Shown here: one piece after another, positions 3,485 through 59,808 of the stretch
Layout of the letters: each line of letters opens with the position of its first letter
Position numbering within the stretch: position 1 is the stretch's first letter
Source: Candidatus Saccharimonadia bacterium
GTDB taxonomy: Bacteria; Patescibacteriota; Saccharimonadia; CAILAD01; JADZBC01
NCBI GenBank assembly: GCA_041907025.1
Contig: JAYRIB010000004.1
Location: forward strand, 1,223 to 65,222
Length of the DNA: 64,000 bases
Direction: 5' to 3'
The notes under the pieces: generated by a model
The model's input: only the letters and a program-made list of their open reading frames with translations
Told to the model about the DNA's origin: nothing
Database searches by the model: none
Program-made: the position numbers and the translations under genes

Positions 3485-4090
3485 ATGTCTAAGCGAGAGG
3501 CCCGTGATTACCTCAAAAAGCACAATGTGTTGAGGGAGAATGGGCATTATGTGTATACCTCGGGCAAGCACGGCGATACGTACTTAAACAAAGACGCCTT
3601 GCTGCCGCACGTGGAGTTGGTGAGTGAGATATGCGAGCAGATTGCGACTGAGTTCGTTGGTCGGGACATTGAAGTAGTTTTGGGTCCGGTGGCCGGCGGA
3701 GTGGTGCTTAGTCAATGGGTGGCGCATCATCTGGGCAAGATTGAAGGCCGCGAGGTATTGTCTGTTTATGCTGACAAACGGAAGACGGAAGGTGAATTCA
3801 TCATTCGCCGTGGTTACGACGAGATGATCCGCGGCAAGCGCATATTGCTTGTTGATGACATTATTAACCAGGGCTCTTCGCTTCGAGGGCTGCAGCGCGA
3901 GGTTGCCCTGATAGAGTGCGAAGTAGATGGGGTGGGGTGCCTGTGTAATAGGTATGAATCAACTGCCGAGGACTTTGGCGTGCCAAAGCTATACAGTTAC
4001 ATTGCATTCAAGCTCAACATCTACGATCCAGACGATTGTCCGCTATGTAGGGCAGACGTACCCTTGAGTAAAGGCTTGGGTCACGCTTGA
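3485..4090 (+). CDS. type I phosphoribosyltransferase (orotate-PRTase-like)
   Basis: PRPP-binding motif RILLVDDIINQGSS, and YTSGKHGDTYLNKD resembling the OPRTase N-terminus. ORF upstream of ATG 3485 overlaps a tRNA-derived repeat and is not taken as coding. Confidence 0.55.
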   Translation: MSKREARDYLKKHNVLRENGHYVYTSGKHGDTYLNKDALLPHVELVSEICEQIATEFVGRDIEVVLGPVAGGVVLSQWVAHHLGKIEGREVLSVYADKRKTEGEFIIRRGYDEMIRGKRILLVDDIINQGSSLRGLQREVALIECEVDGVGCLCNRYESTAEDFGVPKLYSYIAFKLNIYDPDDCPLCRADVPLSKGLGHA

Positions 4091-12136: not shown

Positions 12137-15100
12137 ATGGCTCCCAACGCCACACCACCTAAGCCTACGCTTCGATCCAAACTTCACTTGCGACCCTCAA
12201 CTTCTCTGAAAGTGAGTAAGGCGTCTGTATTTACCCTCCTGGCACTTATATCCATCCAAACCGTCAGTAGTGCCTTGCTTTGGTACGCCGGTAAGATCAA
12301 GGCTGACAGCAGTAGCCGAGTAGTAACTACGAGCCCGGCAAGTAGCGTTACTACTACCGGCGCTACGCTCAGTGGCACATACGATTACCCCACAGATGTT
12401 ACTCAGCGTGGCTTCCAGTATGGCTTGACTACTGGCTATGGCAGCCAAGTGGTGGATGACAGTGTGATGACATACGTGGATACGGGTATACTGGGCGGCG
12501 TAGATACGTCAAGCGGTAGTAGTGGCTACGCTACGGATTCCACGGGGAACCTATACTTGACTCACTTTGATGACCACACAAGTGCAAGTGTGCAAAAGTA
12601 CAGTGCAAGTGGCACTCTTGTATCTGAGTTCGGTTCACAGGGCGCAGGAGACGGGCAGTTTGACACTCCGCAGGATGTTGCTTTAGACACGAGCGGGAAC
12701 ATCTATGTCGCTGACACTAATAATAATAGGGTGCAGAAGTTGGATAGCACTGGTAATTACGTGAGCCAGTTTGACCCACTTGAGCAGGGTAGTGGTAAAT
12801 ACATCGTAGTGACTAGGGTTTCCTTAGATAGTCTAGGTAATATATACGTTTTTGGACACTGGGATAGTGATCCGGGTATATCGAATAATTGGCAGCCAGT
12901 AGTTCAGAGGTATAACGCCAGTGGCGTGTTTCAAACCCAGTTAATCAACAGTTCTGGTACGGCAACTAATCAGCTATACTCATATGCGCAAAATACCGAC
13001 CTGACAACTGATACAAGTAATAATCTATACATTACTGATGCTTATAATCACCGGGTGCTCAAATACGACAGTAGTGGCAATTTCTTGGCTCAGTGGGGAA
13101 CAACTGGCGTTGCTAGCAACGCCCCAGGCCAGTTTAATCTTCCAACTGGCATCGCGCGTGGGCCTGGCGGGCAATTGTATATTTCAGATGGCGGGAATGA
13201 CAGGGTTCAAATCATCAGCCCAGCAGGGGATTACGTACAGAGTTGGTCAGACAATCAAATTGGGTTTCCACTTAATTTAACAGTGAGCCTGAACGGTAAG
13301 ATATACGCCCAATCATGGGGGGGTGCTGGAGGCTTGGTTGTTGGTACACCATCAATCAATGCGAATATCACAAGCCTCCAGTGCGACACTACCTACCATT
13401 ACCGTGCCTTTACTACTGATGCAGACAGTACTGAATACGGTTCAGACGCTACATTTACAACAGATGCTTGTACGGGGTTGCGTAACATAACTAATTTGCC
13501 CACGACCAGCATAAGTCAAACGGGGGCTACACTCCACGGCGCTACAGATTACCCACAGGGCATTACTGGGCGCGGCTTCCAATACGGGTTAACGACTGGT
13601 TATGGTAGCACGGTAGTGGACAGTTCGGCTGTAAACGCAAGTTTTGGCAGTAAGGGGGTAACTAGTTTAAGCGGGACTACAGCGATTGACCTATCTGTCG
13701 ATGCTAACGGCTATAAGTACGTTGCATATTATGGTGATCATGTTGTTAAGAAATATGATGCCTCCAATAATCTCGTGCTTCAGTGGGGCTCAGAAGGGCT
13801 TGGGGCCGGTCAGTTCGGTGGTATTTCTGGGATTACCGCTGCGCCGGATGGCTTTGTTTATACTACGGAGTATTATCTCCAGAATGGTGGAGATATTCTT
13901 TCAAACCCCCGGGTTCAGAAGTTTGACTCCAATGGAAATTTCATTACCCAGTGGGGTTCGTTAGGGTCAGGCGATGGGCAGTTTTCAGCTCCTAAAGATG
14001 TCGCTGTAGACAAGAGTAATAACGTGTATGTTGTAGACTACAACCGCGTTCAGAAGTTTGACTCCAATGGAAATTTCATTACCCAGTGGGGTTCGTTAGG
14101 GTCAGGCGATGGGCAGTTTTCAAACCTAAGTGGTATCGCAATTGCCCCAGATGGCTCTGTGTATGTATCAGACAGGAGTAATGCCCGTATACAGAAGTTT
14201 AGTTCCAGTGGAACATTTATTCTGAAATGGGGTCAGCCGGGGGGTATGGGTGATGGTGAGTTCATCGCCCCTGAGCGAGTCGGAGTAGACGGGTCGGGCA
14301 ATGTATACGTATTGGATTATGCTGGTGGCACATTAAGGATGCAGAAGTTTGATTCAAACGGCAGTTTCCTGGCTCGTTTCGGCGGTTATTTCTATTTTGG
14401 TACCGGACTTTCTGTTACGCCATCCGGTCAGGTATATACCATAGATGCAGCTTCCACTACAGACTACTACACATATGGTATTGATGCCCCTATCACTACT
14501 CTTACCTGTGGCACAGAGTACCACTATCGTCCATACGTAACAGATCGTGGCGGCACGCAGTATGGAAACGATGCAACATTTACAACATCTGCCTGCCCGC
14601 CACTTAACATCACCACAACTAGTTTGGATGATGGCGTGGTTGGCGTGAGTTACTCTGATCTCATTACGGTCGATAATCTCCAGGGTGGCGAGACGTATAC
14701 GGTTAGTTCCGGAAGCGTGCCCCCAGGGTTGACACTTGGGTCGACAACTGGGTATTTGGAAGGGATTCCCTCACAGGAAGGACATTATTTCTTCGATGTA
14801 ACAGTTGAGAATTCTGGATCAAGCGACACCGCGCAAATAGATGTTCATATTTATAACACAAACCCACAATTAAGTATCACGACTGTGGCTATTCCGGACA
14901 CCCAAGTCGGCGCTTCGTATCAGGAATACATCTACACCAGTGACGGTGTGGGTGATGTGAGCTTCAGTATAACTTCAGGTGCGCTACCAGATGGTATGTC
15001 TATTACCTCGTACGGCACGAGCGGGGTATTGTACGGTACTCCAACTACTCCAGGGACCTATACCTTCACCGTGCAAGCTCAGGATAGCCGTGGGGCTGGT

Positions 15101-17272
15101 GTCGGCACTGATACACAGGAGTACTCCATAACGGTCTCGGCGGCTAGTATTAATATCACTACTACCAGCTTGCCGTCAGGTCTAGTGGGCTTGCCATACA
15201 ATAAAAGTATCGATTATGAGTCTGCTAACGCTCAGCCGGTCTTTTCACTTGTTTCTGGAACTTTACCTCCAGGTGTTTCTCTAACCCTTCAGGGCTATCT
15301 GCAAGGCACCCCAACGCAACAAGGTACTTACGATTTTACGGTGCAAGCCGATGATGGTTTTAGTACGGATACCCAGGCACTTAGCTTGCTCATAGGGGCA
15401 CCGGCGGCAGTTACTCCTAATACGCCTTTCGTAAAAATCACTTCGCCAGCGAATGGGGGCTCTATTGGGGCTACAAAGCTTGACGTAGCAGGTATTGGTC
15501 CTGCAGGCAATAAGGTCATACAGCTAACGATAGATAATGTTGTGCAAGGTACAACGAATACGGATAATGAAGGCAAATGGGCATATCAAGCAAGTGGTCT
15601 AAACCCAGGTTCTCATACACTGAGTGCCACTTGGGTTCCGGGCGACGATGTGGCTTTTGTGCCGTTCTTTAACCCCGAAACTTTCTCGAGCGGGATTTCG
15701 GTGATAGATAATGCTAGCTTGCAAACGGTGAAGACAATATACCTCCCAGAATATTCCTTGGCATATGGAGTAACACTCAACCATGCTCGTACTAAGTTGT
15801 ACGCATATGGGGGGCAGCTAAACTTGGGAGAGGGTGAACTTACGAGCTCTGCACAGCTATGGGAGGTTGATCTGGCAACTATGGCTATCCGCACGGTAGG
15901 TTATCCAAGTATGCCTGCCCAAATTGGCTTTGTTACTGCAGTTAACATCTCGCCAGACGACACAGGAGTCGTCCTGCTGAAGATGGAGGGCGGAGAACAG
16001 GCACAACAGGTACTAATCTCACGAGTAGATTTACCAAGCTTCACACCTACAGGGACAGACATTCAGGCTGAAGCTTTAAATACGCCAGCTGTAGTTGATA
16101 GGTTCTTTGAGCTTGCTTTAGCAAGAGCTTACACGTACAGTACCGATTCACAGCAGCGCTACATGTACTTCTTGCTAAGCGCCCTCGATGACGCACCAAG
16201 CAGTAATGAAGTGGTTGTTATTGATACACTAGATGGTAGCTCGAGTACGATCGAGCTTGGTGAGGGGGCTGAATATATACCTAAGGTAATTCAGACTGTA
16301 GGAGATAGGCTCTATGTACTCACCAGCTCGCATCTCCTCACTATTGATGTCGTTACGGGAGGTATTCTGAGCGACATTACTCCAGGTTTCAGTATCGATG
16401 GCTCCGCTTTTGGGTCCGTTGTGTTTGATGTCCCCCCAGATGGTTTGACCGCACTGCTTAGCACATCGGGATTTGGTAACTCCACTACTGTTGTTAGTAT
16501 TGACCTTGCTTCGGGCCAGTCGACTATTCTTCCGAATAGTATCGAAACCAGTAGGCGGCTGGCTAGGGCACTTGGTAAACAAGGCCCTATAGGCATAGGT
16601 ACAACTAGTGATGGTTCTAGGCTATATATTTCATCTCAGGGCCTGTATATATTTGATATGGCCAACGGGGTACCAATTGACCTGGCTGGGTTGCTCCCGC
16701 CAGGTGCAGAGGCCTCGGGACTTACAAGTCATGACTACATTGCCCCTATTCGCCCTCGAGATACCATCGCTTTTACCGTTGCTTCTGGTCCCGTATCGTG
16801 TACCACTACCAACACCTGTCCACCACCGCCGCCTTGTGCTGTGACCAACACCTGTCCACCGCCACCACCGCCCCCGACTGAACCAGCCACAGTCGGCACT
16901 ACCAATCCTAAGACTCCCAAGATTGTGGTTACACCCTTCCCACCAGCGGCATCTGCAGCCTCACGCCTGGGGTGGTTTGACCGCGGTGTTCTGGCGGTGG
17001 CTCGCTTTGTACCTGGGCAAGCAGCCATTGGTTTTCCGTTCCTCTTGTTCCTGCTCTTGCTCCTGTTTGCCCTCTCCCTGTACTATCAGTCTGCCAATGA
17101 GGTCCGTAAGGACAAGCTTAACCGTCAGTTCCTCGCCAAGCGTAAGTCCATCCGAGCGCAACAAGACAACTTTATAGCCCTGGCCTCACACTATCTCAAC
17201 ACCCCAATTACGATTATTCAGAATGGTATAGAGGTGATGGAGGAGTCGAGTAGGGGGCCAAAGAGTAAGTAA
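12137..17272 (+). CDS. giant cell-surface protein (1711 aa): NHL repeats, fibronectin/Ig-like (He_PIG-type) modules, poly-Pro linker, C-terminal TM and HisKA-like tail
   Basis: N-terminal signal anchor; at least 8 NHL-like repeats (NNRVQKFDSNGNFITQWGSLGSGDGQF); repeated modules TGATLSGTYDYPTDVTQRGFQYGLTTGYGS and CDTTYHYRAFTTDADSTEYGSDATFTTDAC; four He_PIG-like Ig modules (TLPPG..L...G.L.GTPT..GTY.FTV); TTNTCPPPPP x2; TM FPFLLFLLLLLFALSL; C-terminal FIALASHYLNTPITIIQNGIEVMEE. Confidence 0.8.
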   Translation: MAPNATPPKPTLRSKLHLRPSTSLKVSKASVFTLLALISIQTVSSALLWYAGKIKADSSSRVVTTSPASSVTTTGATLSGTYDYPTDVTQRGFQYGLTTGYGSQVVDDSVMTYVDTGILGGVDTSSGSSGYATDSTGNLYLTHFDDHTSASVQKYSASGTLVSEFGSQGAGDGQFDTPQDVALDTSGNIYVADTNNNRVQKLDSTGNYVSQFDPLEQGSGKYIVVTRVSLDSLGNIYVFGHWDSDPGISNNWQPVVQRYNASGVFQTQLINSSGTATNQLYSYAQNTDLTTDTSNNLYITDAYNHRVLKYDSSGNFLAQWGTTGVASNAPGQFNLPTGIARGPGGQLYISDGGNDRVQIISPAGDYVQSWSDNQIGFPLNLTVSLNGKIYAQSWGGAGGLVVGTPSINANITSLQCDTTYHYRAFTTDADSTEYGSDATFTTDACTGLRNITNLPTTSISQTGATLHGATDYPQGITGRGFQYGLTTGYGSTVVDSSAVNASFGSKGVTSLSGTTAIDLSVDANGYKYVAYYGDHVVKKYDASNNLVLQWGSEGLGAGQFGGISGITAAPDGFVYTTEYYLQNGGDILSNPRVQKFDSNGNFITQWGSLGSGDGQFSAPKDVAVDKSNNVYVVDYNRVQKFDSNGNFITQWGSLGSGDGQFSNLSGIAIAPDGSVYVSDRSNARIQKFSSSGTFILKWGQPGGMGDGEFIAPERVGVDGSGNVYVLDYAGGTLRMQKFDSNGSFLARFGGYFYFGTGLSVTPSGQVYTIDAASTTDYYTYGIDAPITTLTCGTEYHYRPYVTDRGGTQYGNDATFTTSACPPLNITTTSLDDGVVGVSYSDLITVDNLQGGETYTVSSGSVPPGLTLGSTTGYLEGIPSQEGHYFFDVTVENSGSSDTAQIDVHIYNTNPQLSITTVAIPDTQVGASYQEYIYTSDGVGDVSFSITSGALPDGMSITSYGTSGVLYGTPTTPGTYTFTVQAQDSRGAGVGTDTQEYSITVSAASINITTTSLPSGLVGLPYNKSIDYESANAQPVFSLVSGTLPPGVSLTLQGYLQGTPTQQGTYDFTVQADDGFSTDTQALSLLIGAPAAVTPNTPFVKITSPANGGSIGATKLDVAGIGPAGNKVIQLTIDNVVQGTTNTDNEGKWAYQASGLNPGSHTLSATWVPGDDVAFVPFFNPETFSSGISVIDNASLQTVKTIYLPEYSLAYGVTLNHARTKLYAYGGQLNLGEGELTSSAQLWEVDLATMAIRTVGYPSMPAQIGFVTAVNISPDDTGVVLLKMEGGEQAQQVLISRVDLPSFTPTGTDIQAEALNTPAVVDRFFELALARAYTYSTDSQQRYMYFLLSALDDAPSSNEVVVIDTLDGSSSTIELGEGAEYIPKVIQTVGDRLYVLTSSHLLTIDVVTGGILSDITPGFSIDGSAFGSVVFDVPPDGLTALLSTSGFGNSTTVVSIDLASGQSTILPNSIETSRRLARALGKQGPIGIGTTSDGSRLYISSQGLYIFDMANGVPIDLAGLLPPGAEASGLTSHDYIAPIRPRDTIAFTVASGPVSCTTTNTCPPPPPCAVTNTCPPPPPPPTEPATVGTTNPKTPKIVVTPFPPAASAASRLGWFDRGVLAVARFVPGQAAIGFPFLLFLLLLLFALSLYYQSANEVRKDKLNRQFLAKRKSIRAQQDNFIALASHYLNTPITIIQNGIEVMEESSRGPKSK

Positions 17273-17542
17273 CTTATGCTCGCATGGTGGTGCCCAGAAA
17301 GGTATAATAAGTGGCGAAAGAATCCATATGCGAGCAAAAACACTTTTTCTCATTATGATCATCACAACCTACGGGTATTACCTGCACACTATGTCGGGCG
17401 CCGTGCAGCGCCAAGCAGACGGCCTTATGCGCCAATATAACGCGGCGTTAATAACTGCCAGCGAAACAGCCGATTATTCCGCGCCGAACAATCTAGTAGT
17501 TCAAAAACCAACAGCTAACTAACAGGTAGGGCAAACAATAGT

Positions 17543-32146: not shown

Positions 32147-32524
32147 GGGGCTGACCAGCTTCGACGTTGGATTCTTGACATATAACTGCAAGCCGCCTGA
32201 TCGACGTTACAGATCAATCACAATAAGTGCAAACACTTTTGTTAGCAAAGTAAAAGCTGCTTTTAGCATGCCAAGCTTTGCGCCAGCTTACGCCTAAAAA
32301 CGTTCGCCGCCTATTGCGCCTGACATCAGATGAAGCGCAGGGCGTCACAGTATCTGGTTGCTTAGCTATCGTTCTATCCGGTAGCTCCTAAGACGCAGAA
32401 TAGAGGAGTGATGAGTATGTTTGGCTCGCTTTAAGTGCCTGTACCTCCCAAAACAACCACCAAGCAAGCTAAGCTTGTAGTACGTTATAGAGACAGACTA
32501 GCGGACCAGGGTGCGATTCCCTGC
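32147..32524 (+). ncRNA. ssrA: tmRNA (SsrA)
   Basis: 5' GGGGCUGACCAGCUUCGACG matches the tmRNA 5' consensus GGGGCUGAUUCUGGAUUCGACG. The 3' end GGACCAGGGUGCGAUUCCCUGCAGCUCCACCA is the tRNA-like T-arm/acceptor/CCA. Candidate tag ORF GCA AAC ... GCC TAA at 32229-32297 (ANTFVSKVKAAFSMPSFAPAYA*); its frame is uncertain. TATAGT -10 at 32131-32136. Confidence 0.8.
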
Positions 32525-32542
32525 AGCTCCACCAAAGCTCTT

Positions 32543-32567
32543 ATGCTTAGAAGACCAGGTTAAATGC
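32543..32567 (+). terminator. intrinsic terminator after ssrA
   Basis: ACCAGG ttaaatg CCTGGT followed by TTTTTTG. Confidence 0.6.
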
Positions 32568-32867
32568 CTGGTTTTTTGTATTATAAACAGAGAGAGGGTA
32601 GATGCACTTGCTGCTATTCTCGCCATACTATAAGGACAACGACAGGAAGCACCTTGCCAGAAGGGGGCATGATGGTTACAGGAGGAAAACTCTATTCATT
32701 TGGTATGACGTCATGCTACAATCGTGCCATCAGTTAAGTATTGTACTGCTGAAGATCCTTATACCCTTTGAGAGCGGCGTCTTGTGTTTATTTCGCCCAT
32801 AAGACGCCGCTCTCAACAAAAGTTGAGCTACCTCATCGGTAGTTTCTACGGCAAAGGAGCTATTTCC

Positions 32868-33407
32868 ATGCAAGGTGATTCGCAAACCGAGGTCGTAGCA
32901 ATCGACCTCAGCAAGCCGTGGCAGGTCGTCGAGATGACGGCCGAAGAGTTCCTGCTTCGTATGGCAGCGATCGGTCCGTACAAGGACATCAACCTGGTCG
33001 GCTCGTTTGCCGATCCTGATGACCAGGCAGCCCGCACCGCTCACCGCGACAAGGACCTGCCCTGGCATCGCGACGGCATCGAGAGCCAGGCCATCAAGGA
33101 CATGCAGGGCGGCAGGTACATCACGGCGCCGAACGTGGACGTGGTTGGGATGTACTGCCTCCGCGACAACCGAGAGCCCGGGTCGGACGTCCGCACACCG
33201 TGCTACACGGTGCTCGCGGAAGCCGCGCCCGATGCTGACCCGTACGACGACTCCCAGTTCGCGATCGTGGCCGAGGTTGATCTGCGACCGGGTCAGGCAC
33301 TCATCTGGGACAACCGTCTCTGGCATCGACGCCATGGGCCGGTCGGCAGTCGGGTGAACATCCGCTTCTGGTCGACCTGCCCTGCGCTGTACGAGGTCCG
33401 GCCATGA
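32868..33407 (+). CDS. Fe(II)/2-oxoglutarate dioxygenase-like protein (TauD/TfdA-like motifs), high-GC gene
   Basis: LPWHRDG (HxD) and C-terminal ALIWDNRLWHRRHGPVGSRVNIRF, which resembles TauD WDNR..H.A......R.M.R. Third-position GC is very high and AAAGGAG lies 7 nt upstream. The ORF extends to 32784 through low-GC non-coding-looking sequence. Confidence 0.4.
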   Translation: MQGDSQTEVVAIDLSKPWQVVEMTAEEFLLRMAAIGPYKDINLVGSFADPDDQAARTAHRDKDLPWHRDGIESQAIKDMQGGRYITAPNVDVVGMYCLRDNREPGSDVRTPCYTVLAEAAPDADPYDDSQFAIVAEVDLRPGQALIWDNRLWHRRHGPVGSRVNIRFWSTCPALYEVRP

Positions 33408-33934
33408 TCTTGCCGGAAGGAGCGGCGGTCGTAGGATGTCGACGCTGTGGTGTCGACATCTTCCAGGAGGAAGGTGGGAAGTGGGCAACAGTTGCCTACC
33501 CCATTGCCGACCCTTATGACTGTGAGGGGGGCGCACATGCTCCTGCGGGCAGCCTCTTCGAGCTCGGCCCGTTCGCTCTTCCTGATGGGCGTGTGACGGG
33601 CTTCAAGATCGAGTGCGATCTCGTGGAGCTGGAATCGTGGGCGGCTCTCGCCCGGGTTGCGGCTGAGCTCCTGGATCCGTTCGGTGCCGTCGAGGGCGTA
33701 CCCCGAGGCGGGGTGGCGTTCGCGGAGGCGCTTGAGCCGTACATCGATCCTTCGAGCAAGACGCTCCTGATCGCCGATGACGTGTGGGTCAGCGGCACTT
33801 CGATGGAGCGCCACCGAGCTGGCCGAGACGCCTTTGGCGTTGTGGCCTTCGCTCGGAACCCCGTGGCGCAGTGGGTCAAGTCGATCCTCTCCCTCAACCC
33901 CGAGGCTGAGGCAGCCACATACCGGCTTCAATAG
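33404..33934 (+). CDS. Zn-ribbon plus phosphoribosyltransferase-domain protein (ComF/PRTase-like), high-GC gene
   Basis: N-terminal CRRCG...DCEGG; PRTase motifs VEGVPRGGVAFAEALE and KTLLIADDVWVSGTSM. ATGA overlap with the upstream gene. Confidence 0.4.
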   Translation: MILPEGAAVVGCRRCGVDIFQEEGGKWATVAYPIADPYDCEGGAHAPAGSLFELGPFALPDGRVTGFKIECDLVELESWAALARVAAELLDPFGAVEGVPRGGVAFAEALEPYIDPSSKTLLIADDVWVSGTSMERHRAGRDAFGVVAFARNPVAQWVKSILSLNPEAEAATYRLQ

Positions 33935-34289
33935 CTCAACAACGTTAACCATCGTCGGCATATGTTGTATGGGTTACCGCGATACACAGTCTGGGTTCGT
34001 GCGACCACAATCGCACTGACCTGCCAGTCCGCATGGACCGTCTACTGGAGCGTCATTCCAGGGCTCGATTGAAGGATCGAGCCACTACCCAAGTGCATAA
34101 TCCAGTGATTATGAGTTTAGGTGGTATAGTGCTAATCCCTCACGTTACTCAACCCAGCTGTGTACCTAGAGTAGGGGGTAGCTAGAATCTCCCTCCATCG
34201 ACCTGATTCAGCCATTAGTTCGTGCCACAAAAAACGTACCCGCTCCACCAAAAGGGATTTTCGTGACTCACAAAGATCTTTGTTTGCTG

Positions 34290-34847
34290 TTAGCCCGAGG
34301 GAGTAGTGATTCTGGCCTGTATTGTCTTGTCTACGAAGTGCAAAGTCTTGGCCTTGTTATGTTCAAGAGTGGCCGCCCACTTGATTGCTTCAAGCTTGTT
34401 AATCTCCGAGCGTTCGGCATCTGACAGGCAGTTATGTGCTACGGCAAAGCCAATGTGGTAATTATCTCCATATACCTCACGGAATAAGTATTCAGCTCTT
34501 TGGGCGTGAAACTGGCTTGTGACTACAACAATGCTTTCCCAGCAGTTGGCTTCAACAATCTTTTTGGTGTAGATTGCGTTCTCGTAGGTACTTTTAGATT
34601 TATTCTCAATCAGGATCTTTGCGGGAGGAAAGCCCTGTAATACTGCGTAATCTGCCATCGCTTGGGCCTCTGACTTTTTAGGAGTGTATGAGTGGATGTG
34701 TGCAACATTACCAGACATTACTAGTTGTTTAGCCCCCACCTCCTTATAAAGCTGAATTCCTGTGCGAACTCGACTAGCCCCTTCTTCTGGAAGAGTACCG
34801 TCTGGTCTGACATCAAAGCCAAGAATGATCACTGCGTCATACGTCAT
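34290..34847 (-). CDS. DUF218 (YdcF/SanA/ElyC-like) protein
   Basis: AVIILGFDVRPDG...LVMSGNVAHI...SEAQAMADYAVLQGFPPAKILIENKSKSTYENAIYTKKIV...IVVVTSQFHAQRA follows the DUF218 pattern. GC is native-like. Confidence 0.55.
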   Translation of the reverse strand: MTYDAVIILGFDVRPDGTLPEEGASRVRTGIQLYKEVGAKQLVMSGNVAHIHSYTPKKSEAQAMADYAVLQGFPPAKILIENKSKSTYENAIYTKKIVEANCWESIVVVTSQFHAQRAEYLFREVYGDNYHIGFAVAHNCLSDAERSEINKLEAIKWAATLEHNKAKTLHFVDKTIQARITTPSG

Positions 34848-34999
34848 ATGATTAGTATAACTTATGCAGACATAATAATAGTCATGCTTGGGTGGAATCT
34901 TGAGATATACCTACAATCTGTTATTATAGGCTCTGAACCTTTACTCAACCAATTCCAACCTGCTGGCTCCCGCCGGCCCAATCGCCCAGGGGGCAAGAT

Positions 35000-36052
35000 A
35001 TGGCAGTTTCAACTCGTCAGCACAAGTCTGGCGCAGAGCAACGCAAGTACGTGCTGCAAAAGCCGTACACCATCAAGGGTCGCGATGAGAGGCCAGATAG
35101 GGTGGTCGGCTCCGTTGTGACGGACTCTGACTTCAGCAAGGGCGACATCGTGCCCTGGCTGCTCACGGCAGAGGAAGACAGGAAGCGTGTGCACGGACTA
35201 CGTCGGTCCACCGGACAGGCGAGCTGGTGGGAATACCCCATCTTCCGCGGACTCATCACCCTGATCGGTCGCGTGTTGATCAAGCGCGTCTTCGTCGATC
35301 AGCACAAGATCCCCGGCGGCTTGGGCTTCTATCCGAAGTTCTACCGTCGTGGCCGGCTTTCATCCAAGGCTGGTCGCTGCGAGTTCACCTTCATTGCGGC
35401 GCCTACTCACGCCGATGAGCGGGACATCCTGATCACAGGGTCGTTGGCTCGGCCCTTGGTCTGGACCTGCAAGCCATGGTTTTGCTCTGGCCCCATGTGG
35501 TTGGCTTTGCTCAACCACTACAACGGTGCCTTGCCTATCTTTCGGCCTCAGATCGACGGTATTTACCATCCCAAGAAGAACACACTGGCAATGATCCATC
35601 ATCACCAGATGCGCTCGCATAGGGGTTCGGAAGCTCTCGACATCGTCACGGCACGTCTCTTGGAGGGTAACTCCGCTGAGTTCTTCATCGAAGGGACCAG
35701 GCTTGGGGCTAGTGAGGTCTCATCTGGCTTCTTTGGTGCAATCAGGGTCTCTCGAAGGACAGGTGTTCCGATTCTTCCAATCGCCATCGTCGGCGTGTCG
35801 GAAGGTGATCCGGTGGTTCGCCCGGGATTGTTGCCCTGGCGCCGGGTGGTCCTTGCGGTTGTTTGCAAGCCAATCTACCCGGTTGGATTCGTGGGTACTG
35901 ACGAGGAATGCGAGCAAGCCATGATGGCTGCTTGGACCGGCGCCGTCAACGAAGGGCGTGCCAGGGGTCGAGAGTTGGTTTTGCAGCACGGCCGCCATAG
36001 GGGCGTTGTGCCGCCCAAGCGGACCAAGCCCGCTGAATCGGCTGAGGGGTAG
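35000..36052 (+). CDS. PlsC/LPLAT-family acyltransferase, high-GC gene
   Basis: HxxxxD motif APTHADERD and motif III FFIEGTRLG. Very high third-position GC in a low-GC flank. Confidence 0.45.
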   Translation: MAVSTRQHKSGAEQRKYVLQKPYTIKGRDERPDRVVGSVVTDSDFSKGDIVPWLLTAEEDRKRVHGLRRSTGQASWWEYPIFRGLITLIGRVLIKRVFVDQHKIPGGLGFYPKFYRRGRLSSKAGRCEFTFIAAPTHADERDILITGSLARPLVWTCKPWFCSGPMWLALLNHYNGALPIFRPQIDGIYHPKKNTLAMIHHHQMRSHRGSEALDIVTARLLEGNSAEFFIEGTRLGASEVSSGFFGAIRVSRRTGVPILPIAIVGVSEGDPVVRPGLLPWRRVVLAVVCKPIYPVGFVGTDEECEQAMMAAWTGAVNEGRARGRELVLQHGRHRGVVPPKRTKPAESAEG

Positions 36053-36099
36053 TAGTAAAGAGGTGGTGTGATGGGTGGATTGGGCCCATCACACCACAT

Positions 36100-36126
36100 G
36101 GCCTAGCACTATGCTAGGCCTCTTTT
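36100..36126 (+). terminator. intrinsic terminator after the acyltransferase gene
   Basis: Perfect hairpin GGCCTAGCA cta TGCTAGGCC plus TCTTTT. It is preceded by a second perfect 11-bp inverted repeat, GGTGTGATGGG...CCCATCACACC, at 36063-36093. Confidence 0.65.
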
Positions 36127-36292
36127 ATTAGTGTTATTTCCCGACGCCGTTCGCACGGGTTAAGCATCTAGAGTAGAGGCGTAGTTGATCGTATAGAGGT
36201 TGAGTACACCCCTACTAAAGACTCGGATTGCCTTCGGCCTCCTTGAAGTAGTATCATATACGTAAGAGGAATGAAACAATGGGCGGTACAGT

Positions 36293-51453: not shown

Positions 51454-52424
51454 GCTCAATCATTGAATCCGCGCGGAGCGCTGCCGCAGCCGCCCAAACT
51501 GAGAATGATTTACAGCTTGTTAAAGCGCAGTTTCTAGGTAAGAAGAGCGAGCTCCAGGCCGGTTTGCGCGCGCTTTCAAGCCTGGGCCAAGAAGAGCGCA
51601 AGCAAAAGGGAGCCGAGCTTAACCGTCTAAAGCTGGAGCTCGAAGAAGTATTTTCTTTGCGCCATGCTTCGCTCCTCAACGAGCTTGATGCCCTACCGCC
51701 ACTTGATCTTACGGCACCTGGTATTGGCCAGGGGTTTGGCCATGCCCATCCAGTAACGCTCGTTATGAGTGAGCTATATAGCTCGTTTACTCGCTTGGGC
51801 TTTGCGATAGTTGATAGCAACGAAATAGAGGATGACTGGCACAACTTTGAGGCACTGAATATGCCGCCGCACCACCCGGCCCGCGATATGCAGGACACGT
51901 TTTATATTAAGGACAGCGAAGACTCTCATCGTATTCTGCCTCGTACTCACACCTCTGGCATGCAGGTACGGTTTATGAAGGATAACAAGCCACCGTTTAA
52001 GATCATCGTGCCGGGCAAGGTTTTCCGGAATGAAGATGAAGACAGAACACACTTGTGGTCATTTACCCAGGTGGAAGGTTTGGTTGTGGGTGAAGGGGTG
52101 TCGTTAGTACATCTTAAAGGCGTGTTACTTGCAGCTATGAAAGACTTGTTAGGTGAAGACACAGAGATTCGATTGCGACCGAGTTATTTTCCTTACACTG
52201 AACCATCGATTGAGATCGACGTGACTTACAAGGGAGAGTGGTTGGAGCTTCTGGGTGGCGGCATGGTACACCCAAGTGTACTACAGAACGCTGGTATTGA
52301 CCCTGAGCGCTATAGCGGTTTTGCCTTTGGTATCGGGCCGGAGCGGGTTGCTATGGTGAAGTATCGCATCTCGGATTTACGCAACTTTTGGCGACCAAAG
52401 CTTGACTATCTGGAGCAGTTTTAA
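51450..52424 (+). CDS. pheS: phenylalanyl-tRNA synthetase alpha subunit
   Basis: Class II motifs HPARDMQDTFY, FRNEDEDRTHLWSFTQVEG and GFAFGIGPERVAM. Confidence 0.9.
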   Translation: MSSIIESARSAAAAAQTENDLQLVKAQFLGKKSELQAGLRALSSLGQEERKQKGAELNRLKLELEEVFSLRHASLLNELDALPPLDLTAPGIGQGFGHAHPVTLVMSELYSSFTRLGFAIVDSNEIEDDWHNFEALNMPPHHPARDMQDTFYIKDSEDSHRILPRTHTSGMQVRFMKDNKPPFKIIVPGKVFRNEDEDRTHLWSFTQVEGLVVGEGVSLVHLKGVLLAAMKDLLGEDTEIRLRPSYFPYTEPSIEIDVTYKGEWLELLGGGMVHPSVLQNAGIDPERYSGFAFGIGPERVAMVKYRISDLRNFWRPKLDYLEQF

Positions 52425-55237
52425 TGAAGCTTTCCGTTAAAACACTCAATACTTACCTTAAGAAACCACTTACTACAGAGCGAGTAGTTGAGCTTCTGGG
52501 CCGCACTGAAGTTGAGATTGAAGAGGTTGTTTCAGCTAACACCTGGGACGAGAAGATCATTGCTGCCAAGGTCCAAGAGGTACGGCAGCATCCAGACGCT
52601 GATCGTTTACGCATAGCCACCGTTGATACTGGGTTGGAAACTGTAGAGATTGTCTGCGGTGCACCGAACTTGGCTCAGCACCAAGTTGTTGTCTTGGCGC
52701 AAGTTGGCGCCACATTGCCTGATGGTTTGCGGATCGAATCGGCTAAGCTTCGTGGAGTAACTTCGAATGGTATGCTGTGCTCGGCCAAAGAGCTTGGTAT
52801 TTCAGACGATCATGCTGGGATTATGGTGCTACCAGATGAAACACCACTTGGCGCAACATTGTGCGACATATGGCAAAAGGGCGACACCCTTGATATAAAG
52901 ACACCTGCAAACAGGTGGGATTATCTTAGTTTTGTTGGGCTGGCCAGGGAAGTGGCTGCTCAGGATGAGGGGAACGAGCTGGTAGAGCCACCAGTCGAGG
53001 AAATTACATATTGCGACACTGAACTTGTAAAAGTCAAGGAAAAGGGGGAATGTAGGCGATTCGTGAGCGTTAAGATGTCTGTGAATAACGCTGTGAAGTC
53101 CCCGCAGTGGCTTGTGGATAACTTAGAAGAGAATGGCCTGCGCAGCATTAGTCCTGTTGTAGACATTACCAACTTTGTCATGCTTGAGACTGGCCAGCCT
53201 TCGCACGCTTACGACGCCAAAAAGCTACACGGTGCGTTGCAGGTACGCTTTGGCTCCCCCACCGATAAACTTACAACATTAGATGGCGTGGTGCGCAACT
53301 TGGGTGTTGAGGATCTGGTGATAGCAGACGATAGTGGTGTAATAGCCTTGGCGGGCGTGATGGGCGGCGTGAGTACTGAAGTTGACGCCCAGACGACCGA
53401 GATCCTCTTGGAGGTTGCCAACTTTGACCGCACAAGGGTGCGTAAGGCGGCATTAAGACACGGTTTGCGCAGTGAAGCGTCGGCCCGGTTCGAGCGCTCA
53501 CTCCCTCTCCCCTTGCCTACTTTGGCAGCTAGTCGACTTATATCCTTACTTAAAGAAGTTGCTGAGGCAAAGGTGATTGACTCCCCTTGTGACCAGCTCT
53601 ATGGTTGGCCTTGGGTTCAGCAAATTGGCTTACGTTTACGCAAGGCGGAAAAGCTCTTAGGCACGCCGCTTGATGAAAAGCAGGTGATGAGTGGGCTCAA
53701 GCAGCTCGGATTTGAAGTTGAGCATTTTAGTATTACCAAGGAATCGCGCAAGCACCTAGGTAAGCCGTATATCTGGGGTGCAAATTTCCGAGAGCACGGC
53801 GAATCTGGCTTTGATTGTTCATACCTCATTGATCGCATCTATTCACGCATTGGTGTGCATGTTGGCCACGTGGCGCTTGGTCAATTCCACTTTGGGCGGC
53901 CAGTCGAGGTTGGTGACTTACGCCCAGGCGACGTGGTATTTTACGAAGGCTTAATTAAGAATTCACCAACCGATCACTACTATGTGGCCGACGGCCGCGG
54001 CGGTCACACTAAGATCGAACTTGACAAGCCTATGAAGGTGGGGCATAACGGCATATACATTGGCGACAACCGAGTAATAACTGCTATTCAGTATGAACGC
54101 AAAGGAGAAGACTGGGTTCCTCGGGCCGAGCAAGGCGTGATCGAGGTGCCATTAAGTGACTTCACCAACGACCCAACTTATCTGGGTGCTCGACGCTATG
54201 TTGAGAACTTTAATCATATTCTGGCTATCACAGCACCTTGGTGGAGGACGGATGTGCGCTTAGAAGAAGACATGATTGAGGAAATCGTGAAGATTATCGG
54301 CTATGATGCGATTCCAGCTGAACTACCTCCCCTGCCTCCAACCAACACGCGACCGCATCAACTACTTCCACGGATACTGGAGTTTAAAAAGGCATTGAGC
54401 GCTAGTGGTCTGCAAGAGATTGTGTCATATTCATTTATTAGCGAACGCTCGATTAAGCGCCTGCATCAGAATCCCCATGACTTTCTTGAGATCGCAAACC
54501 CGCTCAGCCGCGAACAGCAATTCTTGCGTCGATCAATGCTACCGAGTCACCTCGATATGGTCAGAAATAACCAGACGTATGCGAAGGAGTTTTTGTGCTT
54601 TGAGGTTGCTCGCACCTATCGGCCCACACAAGACGGCGCTTTGCCAAGCGAGATTTGGCAGCTGGGTATTACGGTGGTGGGTCCGCAGAGTACCCTGAGA
54701 CTTAAAAAAGTGTTCGATAATGTAGCTCAGTATTGTGGCGCCAACCTCGAGTACCAGCCAGTTGATGAGATGCCGTTTGTACCTGGCCGAAGGGCAATAG
54801 TTAAGCAGGAAGAAACTCACCTTGGTAGCTTTGGCCAGTTGAGTAAGCAAGTGCTTGCAGCGAGCGAGATTAGCGCAGAAGTTAGCTATGGCGAGCTGGA
54901 GCTGGGTGAGTTGCTCGGTAGTGAAACGCAACTACATGTTGCTGATCTGCCTGACTATCAGCTTGTAAGGCGTGATATTACGTTTAGCTGCCAATCAGGA
55001 GTGGCTTGGACAGATGTGTGCCGCCTTGTAGCTCAGTCTCAGGGTGTTATGAAGGTTGAGTATCTCGATCAGTATCAGGATGCAGCAATGCAGAAGGATC
55101 GTATTAAGCGTTTAAGTTTGCGTTTGTGGTTCGATCTTGGCGCCAACCCAACTGCTGAGGAGATCAAGAAGCGCCAGGATGCAGTTGAACGAACGCTGAC
55201 ATCGAGCGAAACACTGGGCAAAGTCACAATTAACTAG
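52424..55237 (+). CDS. pheT: phenylalanyl-tRNA synthetase beta subunit carrying an inserted NlpC/P60 domain
   Basis: N-terminal tRNA-binding domain, B3/B4, B5 (...LGTPLDEKQVMSGLKQLGFEVE / ITAPWWRTDVRLEEDMIEEIVKIIGYDAIP), core and C-terminal FDX domains. 937 aa against a typical length of about 800, owing to an insert of about 160 aa. Confidence 0.85.
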   Translation: MKLSVKTLNTYLKKPLTTERVVELLGRTEVEIEEVVSANTWDEKIIAAKVQEVRQHPDADRLRIATVDTGLETVEIVCGAPNLAQHQVVVLAQVGATLPDGLRIESAKLRGVTSNGMLCSAKELGISDDHAGIMVLPDETPLGATLCDIWQKGDTLDIKTPANRWDYLSFVGLAREVAAQDEGNELVEPPVEEITYCDTELVKVKEKGECRRFVSVKMSVNNAVKSPQWLVDNLEENGLRSISPVVDITNFVMLETGQPSHAYDAKKLHGALQVRFGSPTDKLTTLDGVVRNLGVEDLVIADDSGVIALAGVMGGVSTEVDAQTTEILLEVANFDRTRVRKAALRHGLRSEASARFERSLPLPLPTLAASRLISLLKEVAEAKVIDSPCDQLYGWPWVQQIGLRLRKAEKLLGTPLDEKQVMSGLKQLGFEVEHFSITKESRKHLGKPYIWGANFREHGESGFDCSYLIDRIYSRIGVHVGHVALGQFHFGRPVEVGDLRPGDVVFYEGLIKNSPTDHYYVADGRGGHTKIELDKPMKVGHNGIYIGDNRVITAIQYERKGEDWVPRAEQGVIEVPLSDFTNDPTYLGARRYVENFNHILAITAPWWRTDVRLEEDMIEEIVKIIGYDAIPAELPPLPPTNTRPHQLLPRILEFKKALSASGLQEIVSYSFISERSIKRLHQNPHDFLEIANPLSREQQFLRRSMLPSHLDMVRNNQTYAKEFLCFEVARTYRPTQDGALPSEIWQLGITVVGPQSTLRLKKVFDNVAQYCGANLEYQPVDEMPFVPGRRAIVKQEETHLGSFGQLSKQVLAASEISAEVSYGELELGELLGSETQLHVADLPDYQLVRRDITFSCQSGVAWTDVCRLVAQSQGVMKVEYLDQYQDAAMQKDRIKRLSLRLWFDLGANPTAEEIKKRQDAVERTLTSSETLGKVTIN

Positions 55238-57291: not shown

Positions 57292-59808
57292 GTGGAAACA
57301 CAGAACCAGACATTCATTATTCTTGCCACACTACTAACTTTAGCATTTCTTGCTACGCTTGGGTTGGTAGCTTTCGTGATTTACCGGAAAATGGTTCGAC
57401 GCAATAAGGACATCGAGCGGAGCCTAAAAATGGTGCCGTTGCAGATCAAGCTCCCACCGGCCGAGGCGAGTGAATCGAGTAACCGAGATACCCGGGAGCT
57501 GTTTAAAGAAAACATCTCAAAAGCCGAGGGGGTCTTTAACTTGCTTTCGGGCATCACGGCAGATAAATCTCATCTTTACGGTAACCGTTATGTCAGCTTC
57601 GAGATTATTGCTGACGGCGCCATGATCTACTTCTACACCGCAGTGCCAGTCACGCTTTTGTCGACAGTCCAAAAGGCCCTGGTGTCGGGCTACCCGACCA
57701 TCCAGATTGAGCAGATCGATGATCCCAATATCTTTTCACAGACTAGTAAGCTGGCTGGGGTATCTGGTGGCGAGTTGGTACTGGCCAACGATTCCTACTT
57801 CCCTATAGCTACCTATAAGAGTCGTGATTCTGATCCGTTGGCTGGCATACTGAGTAGTCTTTCACGCTTGCAGCCGGGCGAGGGGGCTGGAATTCAAATT
57901 ATGATTCGCCCAGCTAAGCCTGTTTGGGCAAAGAATGCCAAGAAGAAAGCCAAGGACTTGCTAGACCCTGAGAAGATTGCCAAAGAGAAGTATACGACCA
58001 AGAAGTTGGTGCGGGATATTGCCATGGCGCCAATCAAGCAGCCTAAGTACTCCAAGAAGATGGAAGAAGGGACCTATAAACAGGACAACCAGCCAGACGC
58101 CATCAACCAGAAGATGAGTCAGTTGGTAGAGGAGAAGTACGCCGCGCCGGCTTTTGAAACGATGATCCGTATCCTGGTAAGCTCGGGCGATCAGCATCGT
58201 TCCAAGGCGATCGTTCAGGATATGCTCACTGGTTTTGCGCAACTTGCGCTGCCAAACTCCAACCAGTTTAAGTTTAAGCCTGCACCATCGGCCGAGAAGC
58301 TAGCGACCGACTTCATCTTCCGCTTTTTTCCGGCAAGTAAGTCGTCGACGGTGCTAAATTCCACTGAACTTGCAGGAATCTTCCACTTCCCTGGTGAGGA
58401 TATGCAGGTGTCCACACCTGTTATTCGCAAAGGAATGCGCGAGGTACCAGCCCCAGCCGACATGCCAGCCGACGGACTTATACTGGGTAGCAATGTCTAC
58501 CGTGGTCAAGAAACAGTAGTGCGTTTGCTGGACGATGATCGACGGCGTCACGTTTATATTATCGGTCAAACTGGTACCGGTAAGTCAGTTTTCTTAGAAA
58601 ACTGTATCGTGCAGGACATGCATATGGGCAAGGGACTATGCTTCTTGGATCCCCATGGCGACACAGCCGAGAAGCTCATGGCCAAAGTGCCGCCCCATCG
58701 GCTCAAGGACGTTATCTACTTTAACCCGGGTGACATTGATTACCCGCTTGGTTTTAATATCCTCGAGTTTGACCCCGCGCATCCGGAGCAGAAGGACTTC
58801 CTTATTCAGGAGGCGATTAGTATGTTCTATAAGCTCTATGACCCAAAAGGTCAGGGCATTGTCGGGCCAATGTTTGTTGATTGGTTCCGCAATGCTGCTC
58901 TTACCGTTATGTCCGACCCAGCTGGCGGTACGATGATTGAGGTGCCTAAGTTGTTTACGAATGATGACTTTTTAAAGCAGAAGTTTAGGCACGTGGCCGA
59001 TCCGGTGGTGCAAGAGTTCTGGACCGGACAGATGGCGCAGACCAGCGAGCACACTAAGAGTGAAATGCTTGGTTACTTTACGTCTAAGTTTGGCGACTTT
59101 GCCAATAATGAGATAATGCGTAACATTATTGGTCAGAAGAAGTCGTCCTTTAGCTTGCGTGACATCATGGACGGTAAGAAGATCCTATTTGTGAACCTGT
59201 CCAAAGGTTTGCTTGGCGACATGAACTCTAAGTTGCTCGGCATTATTTTCATTATTAAATTCCAGATGGCCGCTATGAGCCGAGCCGATACGCCCGAAGA
59301 TCAGCGTCAAGACTTTAGTCTCTACATTGATGAGTTTCAAAACTATGCCACTGATTCAATTGCCACGATTCTGTCTGAAGCTCGCAAATATCGCTTGAAC
59401 ATGATTATGGCAAACCAGTTTATCTCCCAGCTTGAGGAGCCGATTCGTGATGCGGTCTTTGGTAACGTTGGTAACATGATTGGCTTTCGGGTTGGCCCAG
59501 AGGACGCTGAGTTTATGGCCAAGCAGTTCGCGCCTGCTTTTGATAAAGATGACATTATTAATACGCCCAACTTGTACGCGGCGGCTCGTCTGATTAGCCG
59601 TGGTGCCGTTACGCCGCCTTTTTCGCTCAAAGAAATATTCCCACCGATTGGGGTGGCCAACCCGCAGCTCTATGATCAAATGGTACAGCTCTCGCGTCAG
59701 CAATTCGCCCGCCCGAAGGCCGATGTGGCCGCCGAGATAGCTCATAGTTTGGCAGTTGTGCCCTCGACACCGCAGGCAAAGCCAGGCACCTCCGTAGTAA
59801 ACCGCTAG
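57292..59808 (+). CDS. VirD4/TraG/TraD-like type IV coupling-protein-family ATPase with N-terminal TM and a long N-terminal extension
   Basis: Walker A YIIGQTGTGKS; FLDPHGD; C-terminal LYIDEFQNYATDSIATILSEARKYRLNMIMANQFISQL matches the TraG-D_C (DEF...RKYG....QS.SQL) signature. Confidence 0.5.
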   Translation: METQNQTFIILATLLTLAFLATLGLVAFVIYRKMVRRNKDIERSLKMVPLQIKLPPAEASESSNRDTRELFKENISKAEGVFNLLSGITADKSHLYGNRYVSFEIIADGAMIYFYTAVPVTLLSTVQKALVSGYPTIQIEQIDDPNIFSQTSKLAGVSGGELVLANDSYFPIATYKSRDSDPLAGILSSLSRLQPGEGAGIQIMIRPAKPVWAKNAKKKAKDLLDPEKIAKEKYTTKKLVRDIAMAPIKQPKYSKKMEEGTYKQDNQPDAINQKMSQLVEEKYAAPAFETMIRILVSSGDQHRSKAIVQDMLTGFAQLALPNSNQFKFKPAPSAEKLATDFIFRFFPASKSSTVLNSTELAGIFHFPGEDMQVSTPVIRKGMREVPAPADMPADGLILGSNVYRGQETVVRLLDDDRRRHVYIIGQTGTGKSVFLENCIVQDMHMGKGLCFLDPHGDTAEKLMAKVPPHRLKDVIYFNPGDIDYPLGFNILEFDPAHPEQKDFLIQEAISMFYKLYDPKGQGIVGPMFVDWFRNAALTVMSDPAGGTMIEVPKLFTNDDFLKQKFRHVADPVVQEFWTGQMAQTSEHTKSEMLGYFTSKFGDFANNEIMRNIIGQKKSSFSLRDIMDGKKILFVNLSKGLLGDMNSKLLGIIFIIKFQMAAMSRADTPEDQRQDFSLYIDEFQNYATDSIATILSEARKYRLNMIMANQFISQLEEPIRDAVFGNVGNMIGFRVGPEDAEFMAKQFAPAFDKDDIINTPNLYAAARLISRGAVTPPFSLKEIFPPIGVANPQLYDQMVQLSRQQFARPKADVAAEIAHSLAVVPSTPQAKPGTSVVNR

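Follow-up and report, generated by a model that had tools for sequence, protein, structure and literature searches.

The 64-kb stretch of DNA analysed here (the window, from contig JAYRIB010000004.1) contains a gene for transfer-messenger RNA (tmRNA), ssrA, followed on the same strand by two high-GC genes, referred to below as ORF1 and ORF2. The original prediction had described them as a foreign pair, encoding a TauD-like dioxygenase and a zinc-ribbon phosphoribosyltransferase (PRTase), next to a known type of integration hotspot. The tmRNA gene was identified at 32147-32534 on the plus strand by ARAGORN and by Rfam (RF00023, 87.8 bits, E = 4.8e-34) and is intact. ORF1 and ORF2 occupy a cassette that begins at the first base after it and ends in a second copy of its 3′ terminus:

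32147-32534, plus strand: ssrA (tmRNA), intact, with tag peptide ANTFVSKVKAAFSMPSFAPAYA; attB-side target of the cassette array
32526-32536, plus strand: left crossover core, GCTCCACCA(AA), the last 9 nt of the tmRNA plus 2 nt; exact 11-mer
32535-34250, plus strand: whole cassette, 1,716 bp, starting just after the tmRNA CCA and running through the CCA of the distal core
32553-32578, plus strand: terminator-like hairpin (ACCAGG-TTAAATG-CCTGGT) with a T-run, directly 3′ of the tmRNA, forming the left end of the cassette
32579-32867, plus strand: AT-rich leader, ~44% GC, with ribosome-binding site AAAGGAG at 32853-32859
32868-33407, plus strand: ORF1, 179 aa, predicted minimal TauD/CarC-type Fe(II)/2-oxoglutarate (2OG) dioxygenase
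33404-33934, plus strand: ORF2, 176 aa, predicted minimal type I PRTase resembling orotate phosphoribosyltransferase (OPRT), with a 48-aa N-terminal extension
33935-34128, plus strand: cassette tail, ~50% GC
34129-34241, plus strand: conserved element of ~113 nt resembling an attachment-site (att) arm, directly upstream of the distal core; nhmmer E = 1.8e-40 in the window
34242-34252, plus strand: right core copy, GCTCCACCA(AA), attR-like; exact 11-mer

The two genes differ sharply from their surroundings in composition. GC content is 64.1% in ORF1 and 64.2% in ORF2 versus a window mean of 50.7%, and 1067-nt sliding windows outside the cassette genes have a standard deviation of 2.1% and a maximum of 59%, which places the pair at a z-score of ~7. 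GC content at third codon positions (GC3) is also high, 0.79 and 0.71, respectively, slightly lower than the value above 80% given in the original prediction. By relative synonymous codon usage, the cassette lies at a distance of 1.54 from native genes (native maximum 1.30) and of 0.81-0.89 from phage contigs. The 333 nt between the tmRNA and ORF1 have a GC content of 44%, and the switch in composition at the start codon, as first noticed, is therefore real. The native-looking AAAGGAG was likewise found in place, 8 nt ahead of the ATG, and the two genes overlap by 4 nt (ATGA). The antisense ORFs listed earlier are also present; we regard them as spurious by-products of high GC content because the conserved homologue families lie in the plus-strand frames. 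In the leader, a consensus scan revealed no consensus promoter on the plus strand, and a 66-aa ORF called by some pipelines (32602-32802) has no support. The hairpin at 32553-32578 was read from the sequence and is not among the features listed by that scan; it accompanies the cassette in a conspecific contig (L001).

Contrary to the initial impression that the 3′ end of ssrA is not repeated, the window contains precisely two copies of the 11-mer GCTCCACCAAA, at 32526 and at 34242 and both on the plus strand (0.05 copies expected by chance), which delimit the 1,716-bp cassette. The core-to-core spacing is 1,716 nt in L001 too. The view of ssrA as the integration site is thus upheld, the cassette starting at the tmRNA end with core copies at both borders. 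Arm and core together form an element of ~122 nt, with one copy in the window at 34129-34250. L001 contains three copies of a ~125-nt direct repeat, each terminating in CGCTCCACCA, the last 9 nt of the tmRNA. While copies have diverged to 63-71% identity between them, GCTCCACCA is invariant in all seven aligned. All matches of a repeat profile searched with nhmmer lie downstream of ssrA, on one and the same strand (window, L001-L006, L012 and L013).

Two other identities for this repeat were considered and rejected. It is not a 3′ fragment of tmRNA, as no homology to the tmRNA body was detectable beyond the last 9-12 nt, nor a structured RNA or an integron attC site, as it matched no Rfam family and has no stable fold. 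Its DNA fold has an energy of −8.4 kcal/mol (z = 0.18 versus shuffled sequences), and the consensus fold one of −4.5 kcal/mol with little covariation. The repeat is therefore more like a double-stranded att arm than like an integron attC. The core, at only 9-11 nt, is short beside the identity blocks typical of tmRNA-integrated islands.

To place the contig, we compared the arginyl-tRNA synthetase (ArgRS) encoded 6 kb downstream with a collection of species-representative genomes. Only Candidatus Saccharibacteria/Patescibacteria metagenome-assembled genomes (MAGs) matched, with a best identity of 80%, and the genes for histidine kinase, NUDIX protein, aldolase, SmpB and ArgRS are syntenic with Saccharibacteria MAGs. 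Judged from its sequence, the source organism is a Candidatus Saccharibacteria bacterium, in line with the earlier guess of an epibiont. Saccharibacteria are known as epibionts of Actinobacteria, with ultra-small cells and reduced genomes, and their routes of gene gain are poorly known. A 99%-identical ORF1 protein is encoded on contigs of six other datasets, namely one NCBI MAG (GCA_964602205.1), one ENA assembly and four Logan assemblies (DRR359555, ERZ4208449, SRR26871262, DRR236223 and DRR236222 for these five). At a nucleotide identity of 96.6-98.7%, four of the six contigs cover both GC boundaries and two the upstream boundary only. The same junctions in six other assemblies therefore exclude a chimeric join as far as assemblies can show, which answers a concern raised at the outset.

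Tandem cassette arrays behind ssrA

The region behind ssrA varies among related genomes by whole cassettes. Relative to the window, L001 has two extra blocks, one of ~660 bp inserted exactly after the tmRNA ...GCTCCACCA (...CCACCA) and one of ~1.37 kb after the ORF1/ORF2 block. In L001-L004, another cassette separates the tmRNA from the ORF1/ORF2 unit, which in the window follows the tmRNA directly. Whole cassettes, bounded exactly at the core, distinguish strains that are 97-99% identical. In two further species, three (L012) and two (L013) repeat copies lie between ssrA and the conserved histidine-kinase gene; these arrays carry other small genes, and ORF1 and ORF2 are absent from the locus. 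The comparison of sister genomes that had been recommended thus agrees with composition and codon usage in marking the two genes as foreign, as first proposed. L012 and L013 share a 620-nt cassette (124-aa ORF) at 85% identity, which takes first place in the array of L012 but second place in that of L013.

The same arm element closes every array cassette in L001, L012 and L013. Left ends, which follow right after the core, are of three types. In one of them, TTGACT and TAnnAT are separated by 17 nt with TGn at their end, which makes a near-consensus promoter of the extended −10 kind; the ORF1/ORF2 cassette differs in bearing the terminator-like hairpin at its left end. Array units are 0.55-1.7 kb long and compact, each made up of a promoter or terminator, one or two genes and the arm, with no pseudogene debris. 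The last ~40 nt of the ORF1/ORF2 cassette tail (34085-34124) are similar to the pre-repeat tails of other cassettes. Although the flanks are ~98% identical, the repeat in the window differs in sequence from the L001 copies, and gene conversion or recombination within repeats therefore also occurs.

Measured by Islander-type criteria, the tmRNA target gene is kept full-length, with the cassette beginning at 32535, a distal direct repeat of the 3′ fragment of the target gene (tDNA) is present, and the cassette is compositionally deviant and absent from the site in L012 and L013. Its cargo consists of ORF1 and ORF2 only, with no integrase inside the island. With att-like repeats, no integrase and variable presence, absence and order of cassettes, the units are candidate cis-mobilizable elements (CIMEs), and their repeats are putative att sites.

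Among described systems, the closest are the tandem ssrA islands of Dehalococcoides and, with them, CIME/accretion and tycheposon arrays. In Dehalococcoides (McMurdie et al. 2011, PMC3146451), tandem units of strain-specific content likewise lie downstream of a single-copy ssrA, and some units lack an integration module and have been read as cis-mobilizable elements (PMC3146451). However, those islands extend over several kb and in most cases include a serine recombinase (DsiB) module, whereas the units described here measure 0.55-1.7 kb and none has a recombinase. The insertion point in Dehalococcoides lies in the T-loop, with a 20-bp repeat, while the core here is the terminal 9-11 nt (the acceptor/CCA end); the conserved arm of ~113 nt is a further difference. 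With CIMEs, tDNA accretion and the tycheposon arrays of Prochlorococcus (10.1101/2020.12.28.424599), the present array shares cargo that is flanked by att-like sites and has no integrase of its own, and the likeness extends to successive integrations that push older units outward and to partial tDNA repeats at unit borders (10.1101/2020.12.28.424599). Unlike in those systems, no cognate-integrase parent was found for the present array, and its units are much smaller and uniform in architecture.

Integron arrays are alike in having tandem one- or two-gene cassettes, a conserved terminal recombination element, one fixed site and variable order and content. Here, however, the repeat lacks an attC hairpin fold (z = 0.18), several cassettes have their own promoter, the insertion site is the ssrA end instead of attI, and no IntI adjoins the array. 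Upstream of ssrA lie glycosyltransferases, and no IntI-type recombinase was found in the window. Because there is neither an attC fold nor an IntI, the array is not an integron. It is set apart by small uniform units, no recombinase per unit, a terminal core and a long arm.

Between the array and the histidine-kinase gene lies a second strain-variable segment, probably a further acquisition with a decayed terminal repeat:

34253-36292, no strand assigned: second strain-variable segment, absent at the locus in L012 and L013
34290-34847, minus strand: DUF218 gene, 46% GC, within this segment
35000-36052, plus strand: acyltransferase gene, 59% GC, GC3 0.70, the second-highest GC content in the window

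Two observations concern related loci. Homologues of the 124-aa cassette protein (a small protein with the motif 'YPWKLE...', present in cassettes of L012, L013 and L001) occur in L053 (10001-10288) and L055-L057, Patescibacteria contigs of ~41% GC, shortly downstream of tRNA genes (tRNA-Gln, tRNA-Arg); no ssrA-type repeat or recombinase was found near them in these four contigs. In more distant Saccharibacteria of 44-47% GC, a high-GC (60-64%) nucleotide-metabolism pair, purC (SAICAR synthetase) and purE (AIR carboxylase), lies downstream of ssrA at the equivalent hotspot (L017, 5854-7276; L018, 5825-7265), and no core repeat was found at this interval in either.

Predicted folds and relatives of the cassette proteins

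The enzyme assignments of the original prediction hold at the level of structure, while the Pfam scores of both proteins are below threshold. For ORF1, Pfam TauD (PF02668) gives 15.2 bits versus a cut-off of 27, with only the region of the WDNRLWH motif aligned; NCBIfam has no match for ORF1 or ORF2, and no Protein Data Bank (PDB) sequence was matched by the ORF1 family profile. An AlphaFold2 model built on the family alignment has a predicted local distance difference test score (pLDDT) of 94.5. In Foldseek it matched CarC best, then PlaO1, PHD2 and TmpA, with a probability of 1.0 and a template-modelling score of ~0.5, and a fold search of BFVD gave generic 2OG-oxygenase folds only. H67-x-D69, H153, R162 and R166 are invariant in 33 family sequences, and the TauD-type WDNRLWH motif is present; a 2OG-binding arginine can be assigned by analogy. 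The model thus suggests that ORF1 is a TauD/CarC-type Fe(II)/2OG dioxygenase with a double-stranded beta-helix fold. It resembles the TauD/TfdA-CarC clade in this predicted fold, in the HxD...H triad and in the WDNRxxH(R) motif, but proteins of the ORF1 type have 150-180 aa compared with ~250-300 aa in that clade.

For ORF2, the Pfam score is 12.7 bits for PF00156 (Pribosyltran; cut-off 26.3), and there is no match to NCBIfam pyrE. Its AlphaFold2 model on the family alignment (pLDDT 86.8) matched orotidine 5′-monophosphate (OMP) synthase and xanthine-guanine PRTase (XGPRT) best in Foldseek. Conserved motifs are VEGVPRGG, containing the pyrophosphate (PPi) loop VPRGG, and the phosphoribosyl pyrophosphate (PRPP) motif LLIADDVWVSGTS, with the family form LLIADDVxxxGxS. 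The family profile found OPRT of A. pernix (PDB 2yzk, E = 1.7e-5), with the PPi loop, the PRPP motif and the N-terminal FxLxSG aligned. ORF2 is accordingly modelled as an OPRT-like minimal type I PRTase fold. Fold, PRPP motif, PPi loop and the FxLxSG-type N-terminal motif are shared with PyrE; unlike PyrE, ORF2 has a core of ~125 aa, a deletion of the ~22-residue catalytic-loop segment and, in few members, a CxxC...C...H extension. Without the flexible catalytic loop of OPRT, PRTase activity is uncertain.

The zinc ribbon of the original prediction is the 48-aa N-terminal CxxC...C...H extension, which ORF2 shares with only four close relatives (P0054-P0057, including the L001 allele). At least one relative bearing it is found in a phage contig, and most relatives lack it; the PRTase part of the prediction can be narrowed to an OPRT-like fold without the OPRT catalytic loop. 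An identity of ORF2 as a ComF-type protein was rejected, there being no ComF match in Pfam or NCBIfam and the zinc-finger-like extension being limited to those four relatives. ORF2 is also unrelated to the OPRT-like gene that the window contains elsewhere, and is not its paralogue:

3389-4090: native OPRT-like gene of host-level GC content; NCBIfam pyrE_Therm, 104 bits (below the cut-off of 150)

Homologues form 53 clusters at 90% identity for ORF1 and 106 for ORF2, all of them unnamed metagenomic proteins. In an exhaustive profile search of 1.84 billion representatives, the ORF1 family comprised 29 clusters at 50% identity. About 25 contigs (paired by size) are common to the two match lists, indicating linkage, and in L007, L011, L047, L048 and L049 the relatives are adjacent with the same 4-nt overlap. 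On this sequence pattern, ORF1 and ORF2 are a conserved, translationally coupled pair. Comparison of the window with L001 gave pN/pS values of 0.05 for ORF1 and 0.28 for ORF2 (few substitutions), and both genes are under purifying selection.

Nine other long contigs carrying homologues were inspected, two of which have ORF1 relatives only. Seven of the nine are phage-like (L007, L008, L010, L011, L047, L049 and L050), with a uniform GC content of 56-66% and dense, co-directional small ORFs that include terminase, PolA or DnaE, RecA, SSB, MazG, DpdA, methyltransferases and WhiB. As far as is known, WhiB is confined to Actinobacteria and their phages. The DnaE of L011 is closest to that of Streptomyces phages, at 33% identity only. 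The gene or pair adjoins ThyX in L047, dCTP deaminase (DCD) in L049 and a B12-dependent ribonucleotide reductase (RNR; RTPR) in L011, neighbours that point to pyrimidine metabolism. The 89.8-kb phage-like contig L007, which has the pair, also encodes a protein with a dGTP_diPhyd_N (dATP/dGTP diphosphohydrolase-type) domain and MazG (15944-17299), which hints at further manipulation of the nucleotide pool.

The remaining two contigs, L046 (51% GC) and L048 (48% GC), are cellular, and here the genes again form sharp GC islands at other loci. In L048 (9465-10537), the pair is a 63% GC island away from ssrA, with a large serine recombinase ~10 kb off. Between the window and L048, ORF1 is 93% identical in nucleotides, ORF2 only 69%, so that a recombination breakpoint lies at the gene junction; such mosaic identity is typical of phage modules. 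L046 (9394-11195) has an ORF1 homologue of 78% identity, 66% GC and GC3 0.88, without ORF2, and a dihydroorotase gene follows it directly in the same GC island. An alternative identity of this Amidohydro_2 neighbour, iso-orotate decarboxylase, was rejected, as PDB and NCBIfam searches identified a dihydroorotase. In tblastx, matches of L046 and L048 to the Saccharibacteria loci examined were limited to cassette genes.

Two contigs from IMG/VR carry an ORF1 relative of 41% identity (L051, 6001-6630; L052, 2308-2790) with an in-frame TAG at a conserved position. More long ORFs are found at these loci when TGA is read as sense (16 versus 10); they may belong to a stop-codon-recoded phage, or the ORF1 relative may be a pseudogene.

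Origin and possible role of the cassette

We propose that the segment 32535-34250 is a discrete, integrase-less cassette of 1.7 kb that was inserted by recombination at the 3′ terminus of ssrA (GCTCCACCA). It would belong to a lineage-specific family of cassettes with one or two genes each, often with their own −35/−10 promoter, and a ~122-nt unit of arm and ssrA-end core. Such cassettes would stack in tandem behind ssrA, varying by strain and species, and we infer that the recombinase acts in trans and is encoded elsewhere. The relatives of the gene pair reside mainly in replication and nucleotide-metabolism modules of uncultured phages with a high GC content, of which one or more are actinophage-like, and the pair most likely came from phages of high-GC hosts of Saccharibacteria. 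Since its GC content has not ameliorated, the acquisition would be recent. Because of the ThyX, DCD and RNR neighbours, the OPRT-like ORF2, the dihydroorotase of L046 and the match of ORF1 to CarC, a desaturase that acts on a carboxylated N-heterocycle, a function centred on orotate suggests itself, in which ORF1 and ORF2 would jointly process a pyrimidine base or nucleotide similar to orotate. Taken as a whole, this explanation (an integrase-less ssrA cassette with a phage-derived, selected gene pair and an orotate-like pyrimidine role) is in our judgement probable.

Several results weigh against it. No integrase or recombinase domain was found among the ORFs scanned in the 64-kb window, in agreement with the original prediction, and no recombinase adjoins the arrays in any related locus examined. 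Viral contigs scanned for the tmRNA 3′ end and for two patterns of the repeat gave no match, and hence no circular or attP form; nor was an autonomous element with a cognate integrase on the same att site found in the loci examined. A scan of metagenome contigs with the repeat pattern returned 26 loci, which nhmmer and ARAGORN identified as chance matches except for a weak partial match (L036). Homologous recombination from repeat to repeat, or gene conversion, could explain part of the variability. The Pfam scores of ORF1 and ORF2 fall short of their gathering thresholds, and the ~22-residue segment with the catalytic Lys/His of OPRT is absent from the ORF2 family in the 2yzk alignment. As for the donor, tblastn of ORF1 and ORF2 against 50,697 cultured-phage records gave no match, as did the L007 terminase against such records, and none of the cassette proteins, ORF1 and ORF2 included, had a match in PHROGs; the host assignment of the donor phage draws on WhiB, GC content and the 33% DnaE match. 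In a small neighbour-joining tree, the three cell-borne ORF1 copies (window, L048 and L046) group together as sister to the phage copies, and therefore a single entry into cells followed by cell-to-cell spread is possible. The adjacency to dihydroorotase is a single observation.

The same findings allow other accounts of how the genes came to be there. That the contig is a chimera of a Saccharibacteria genome and high-GC DNA would fit the abrupt switch in composition, yet we give this practically no credence, as the low-GC leader/ORF1 and ORF2/tail/repeat junctions recur in six other datasets at 96.6-98.7% identity. The locus might instead be the leftover of an integrase-bearing prophage or island that integrated at ssrA and was degraded in situ, its repeats being old att scars. 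Tandem degraded elements with partial tDNA repeats are indeed common at tRNA and tmRNA genes (PMC3146451; 10.1101/2020.12.28.424599), no integrase is present, and the repeat copies have diverged to 63-71% identity. We nevertheless think decay unlikely: near-identical strains (97-99%) differ by whole cassettes bounded exactly at the core, one cassette is placed differently in the arrays of two species, and the units are compact and free of pseudogene debris. The original prediction favoured direct transfer of both genes from the chromosome of a high-GC actinobacterial host to its symbiont. Of this, foreign genes in an epibiont stand, and GC content, codon usage and the Saccharibacteria habit of living on Actinobacteria would all suit such a source; a prophage in the host chromosome would moreover blur the two routes. 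An actinobacterial genome name appears on none of the 53 and 106 homologue clusters, however, and L046 and L048 are genomes of ~50% GC in which the genes are GC islands. With seven of the nine inspected contigs phage-like and high in GC, the likely donor is therefore the high-GC (actino)phage pool, and a chromosomal source is in our view very unlikely.

What the pair does can also be read differently. It might be a counter-defence or regulatory module of phages that binds or destroys a nucleotide signal, or PRPP or guanosine tetraphosphate (ppGpp), with no biosynthetic role, and in the Saccharibacterium might serve phage exclusion or be neutral cargo. In its favour are the missing OPRT catalytic loop of ORF2, the capacity of PRTase folds to bind ppGpp (5vog, one of the structure matches of ORF2, is an example), the position of the genes among early and replication genes of phages, and the small size of this orphan family, with its 29 clusters in 1.84 billion representatives. 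However, neither ORF1 nor ORF2 nor any other cassette protein was recognized by PADLOC, and the complete or near-complete invariance of the facial triad and the PRPP motif argues for catalysis. The neighbours are enzymes of pyrimidine metabolism. We think such a role, or a non-catalytic one, improbable but, with the loop missing, still a serious alternative. Within the pyrimidine reading that we prefer, ORF1 might oxidize dihydroorotate or a related pyrimidine before a PRPP-dependent conversion (ribosylation) by ORF2, a guess derived from one adjacency and fold analogies that we hold tentatively to doubtfully. Its boldest form, which we regard as a long shot, makes ORF1 a soluble Fe(II)/2OG dihydroorotate oxidase (desaturase) replacing the flavin-dependent PyrD, and ORF2 the enzyme that ribosylates orotate. 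The two would then provide an O2-driven shortcut to OMP, a phage auxiliary module captured by nucleotide-auxotrophic Saccharibacteria from host phages via previously undescribed integrase-less, promoter-bearing ssrA mini-cassettes.

For Saccharibacteria, the locus would represent a concrete route of gene gain, in which a fixed hotspot at the ssrA end collects self-contained cassettes of less than 2 kb. Should the donors be phages that infect actinobacterial hosts, the epibiont would have a source of genes in phage DNA that is injected or set free where it meets its host. As a two-gene module of great rarity, with clear catalytic motifs and amid pyrimidine-metabolism genes, the cargo is a tractable target for enzyme discovery. 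The array further offers a pair of attB and att arm with which to find the recombinase, and could be useful for Patescibacteria genetics.

Three other genes of the window were noted. The phenylalanyl-tRNA synthetase beta chain (52424-55237) has an insertion of an NlpC/P60 and C92 papain-like amidase between B3_4 and B5 (residues ~446-595). A protein of 1,711 aa with NHL and beta-propeller repeats and He_PIG immunoglobulin-like domains, probably a surface protein, is encoded at 12137-17272. Adjoining gyrB, 57292-59808 encodes an 838-aa protein with a T4SS-DNA_transf domain (VirD4-type coupling protein).

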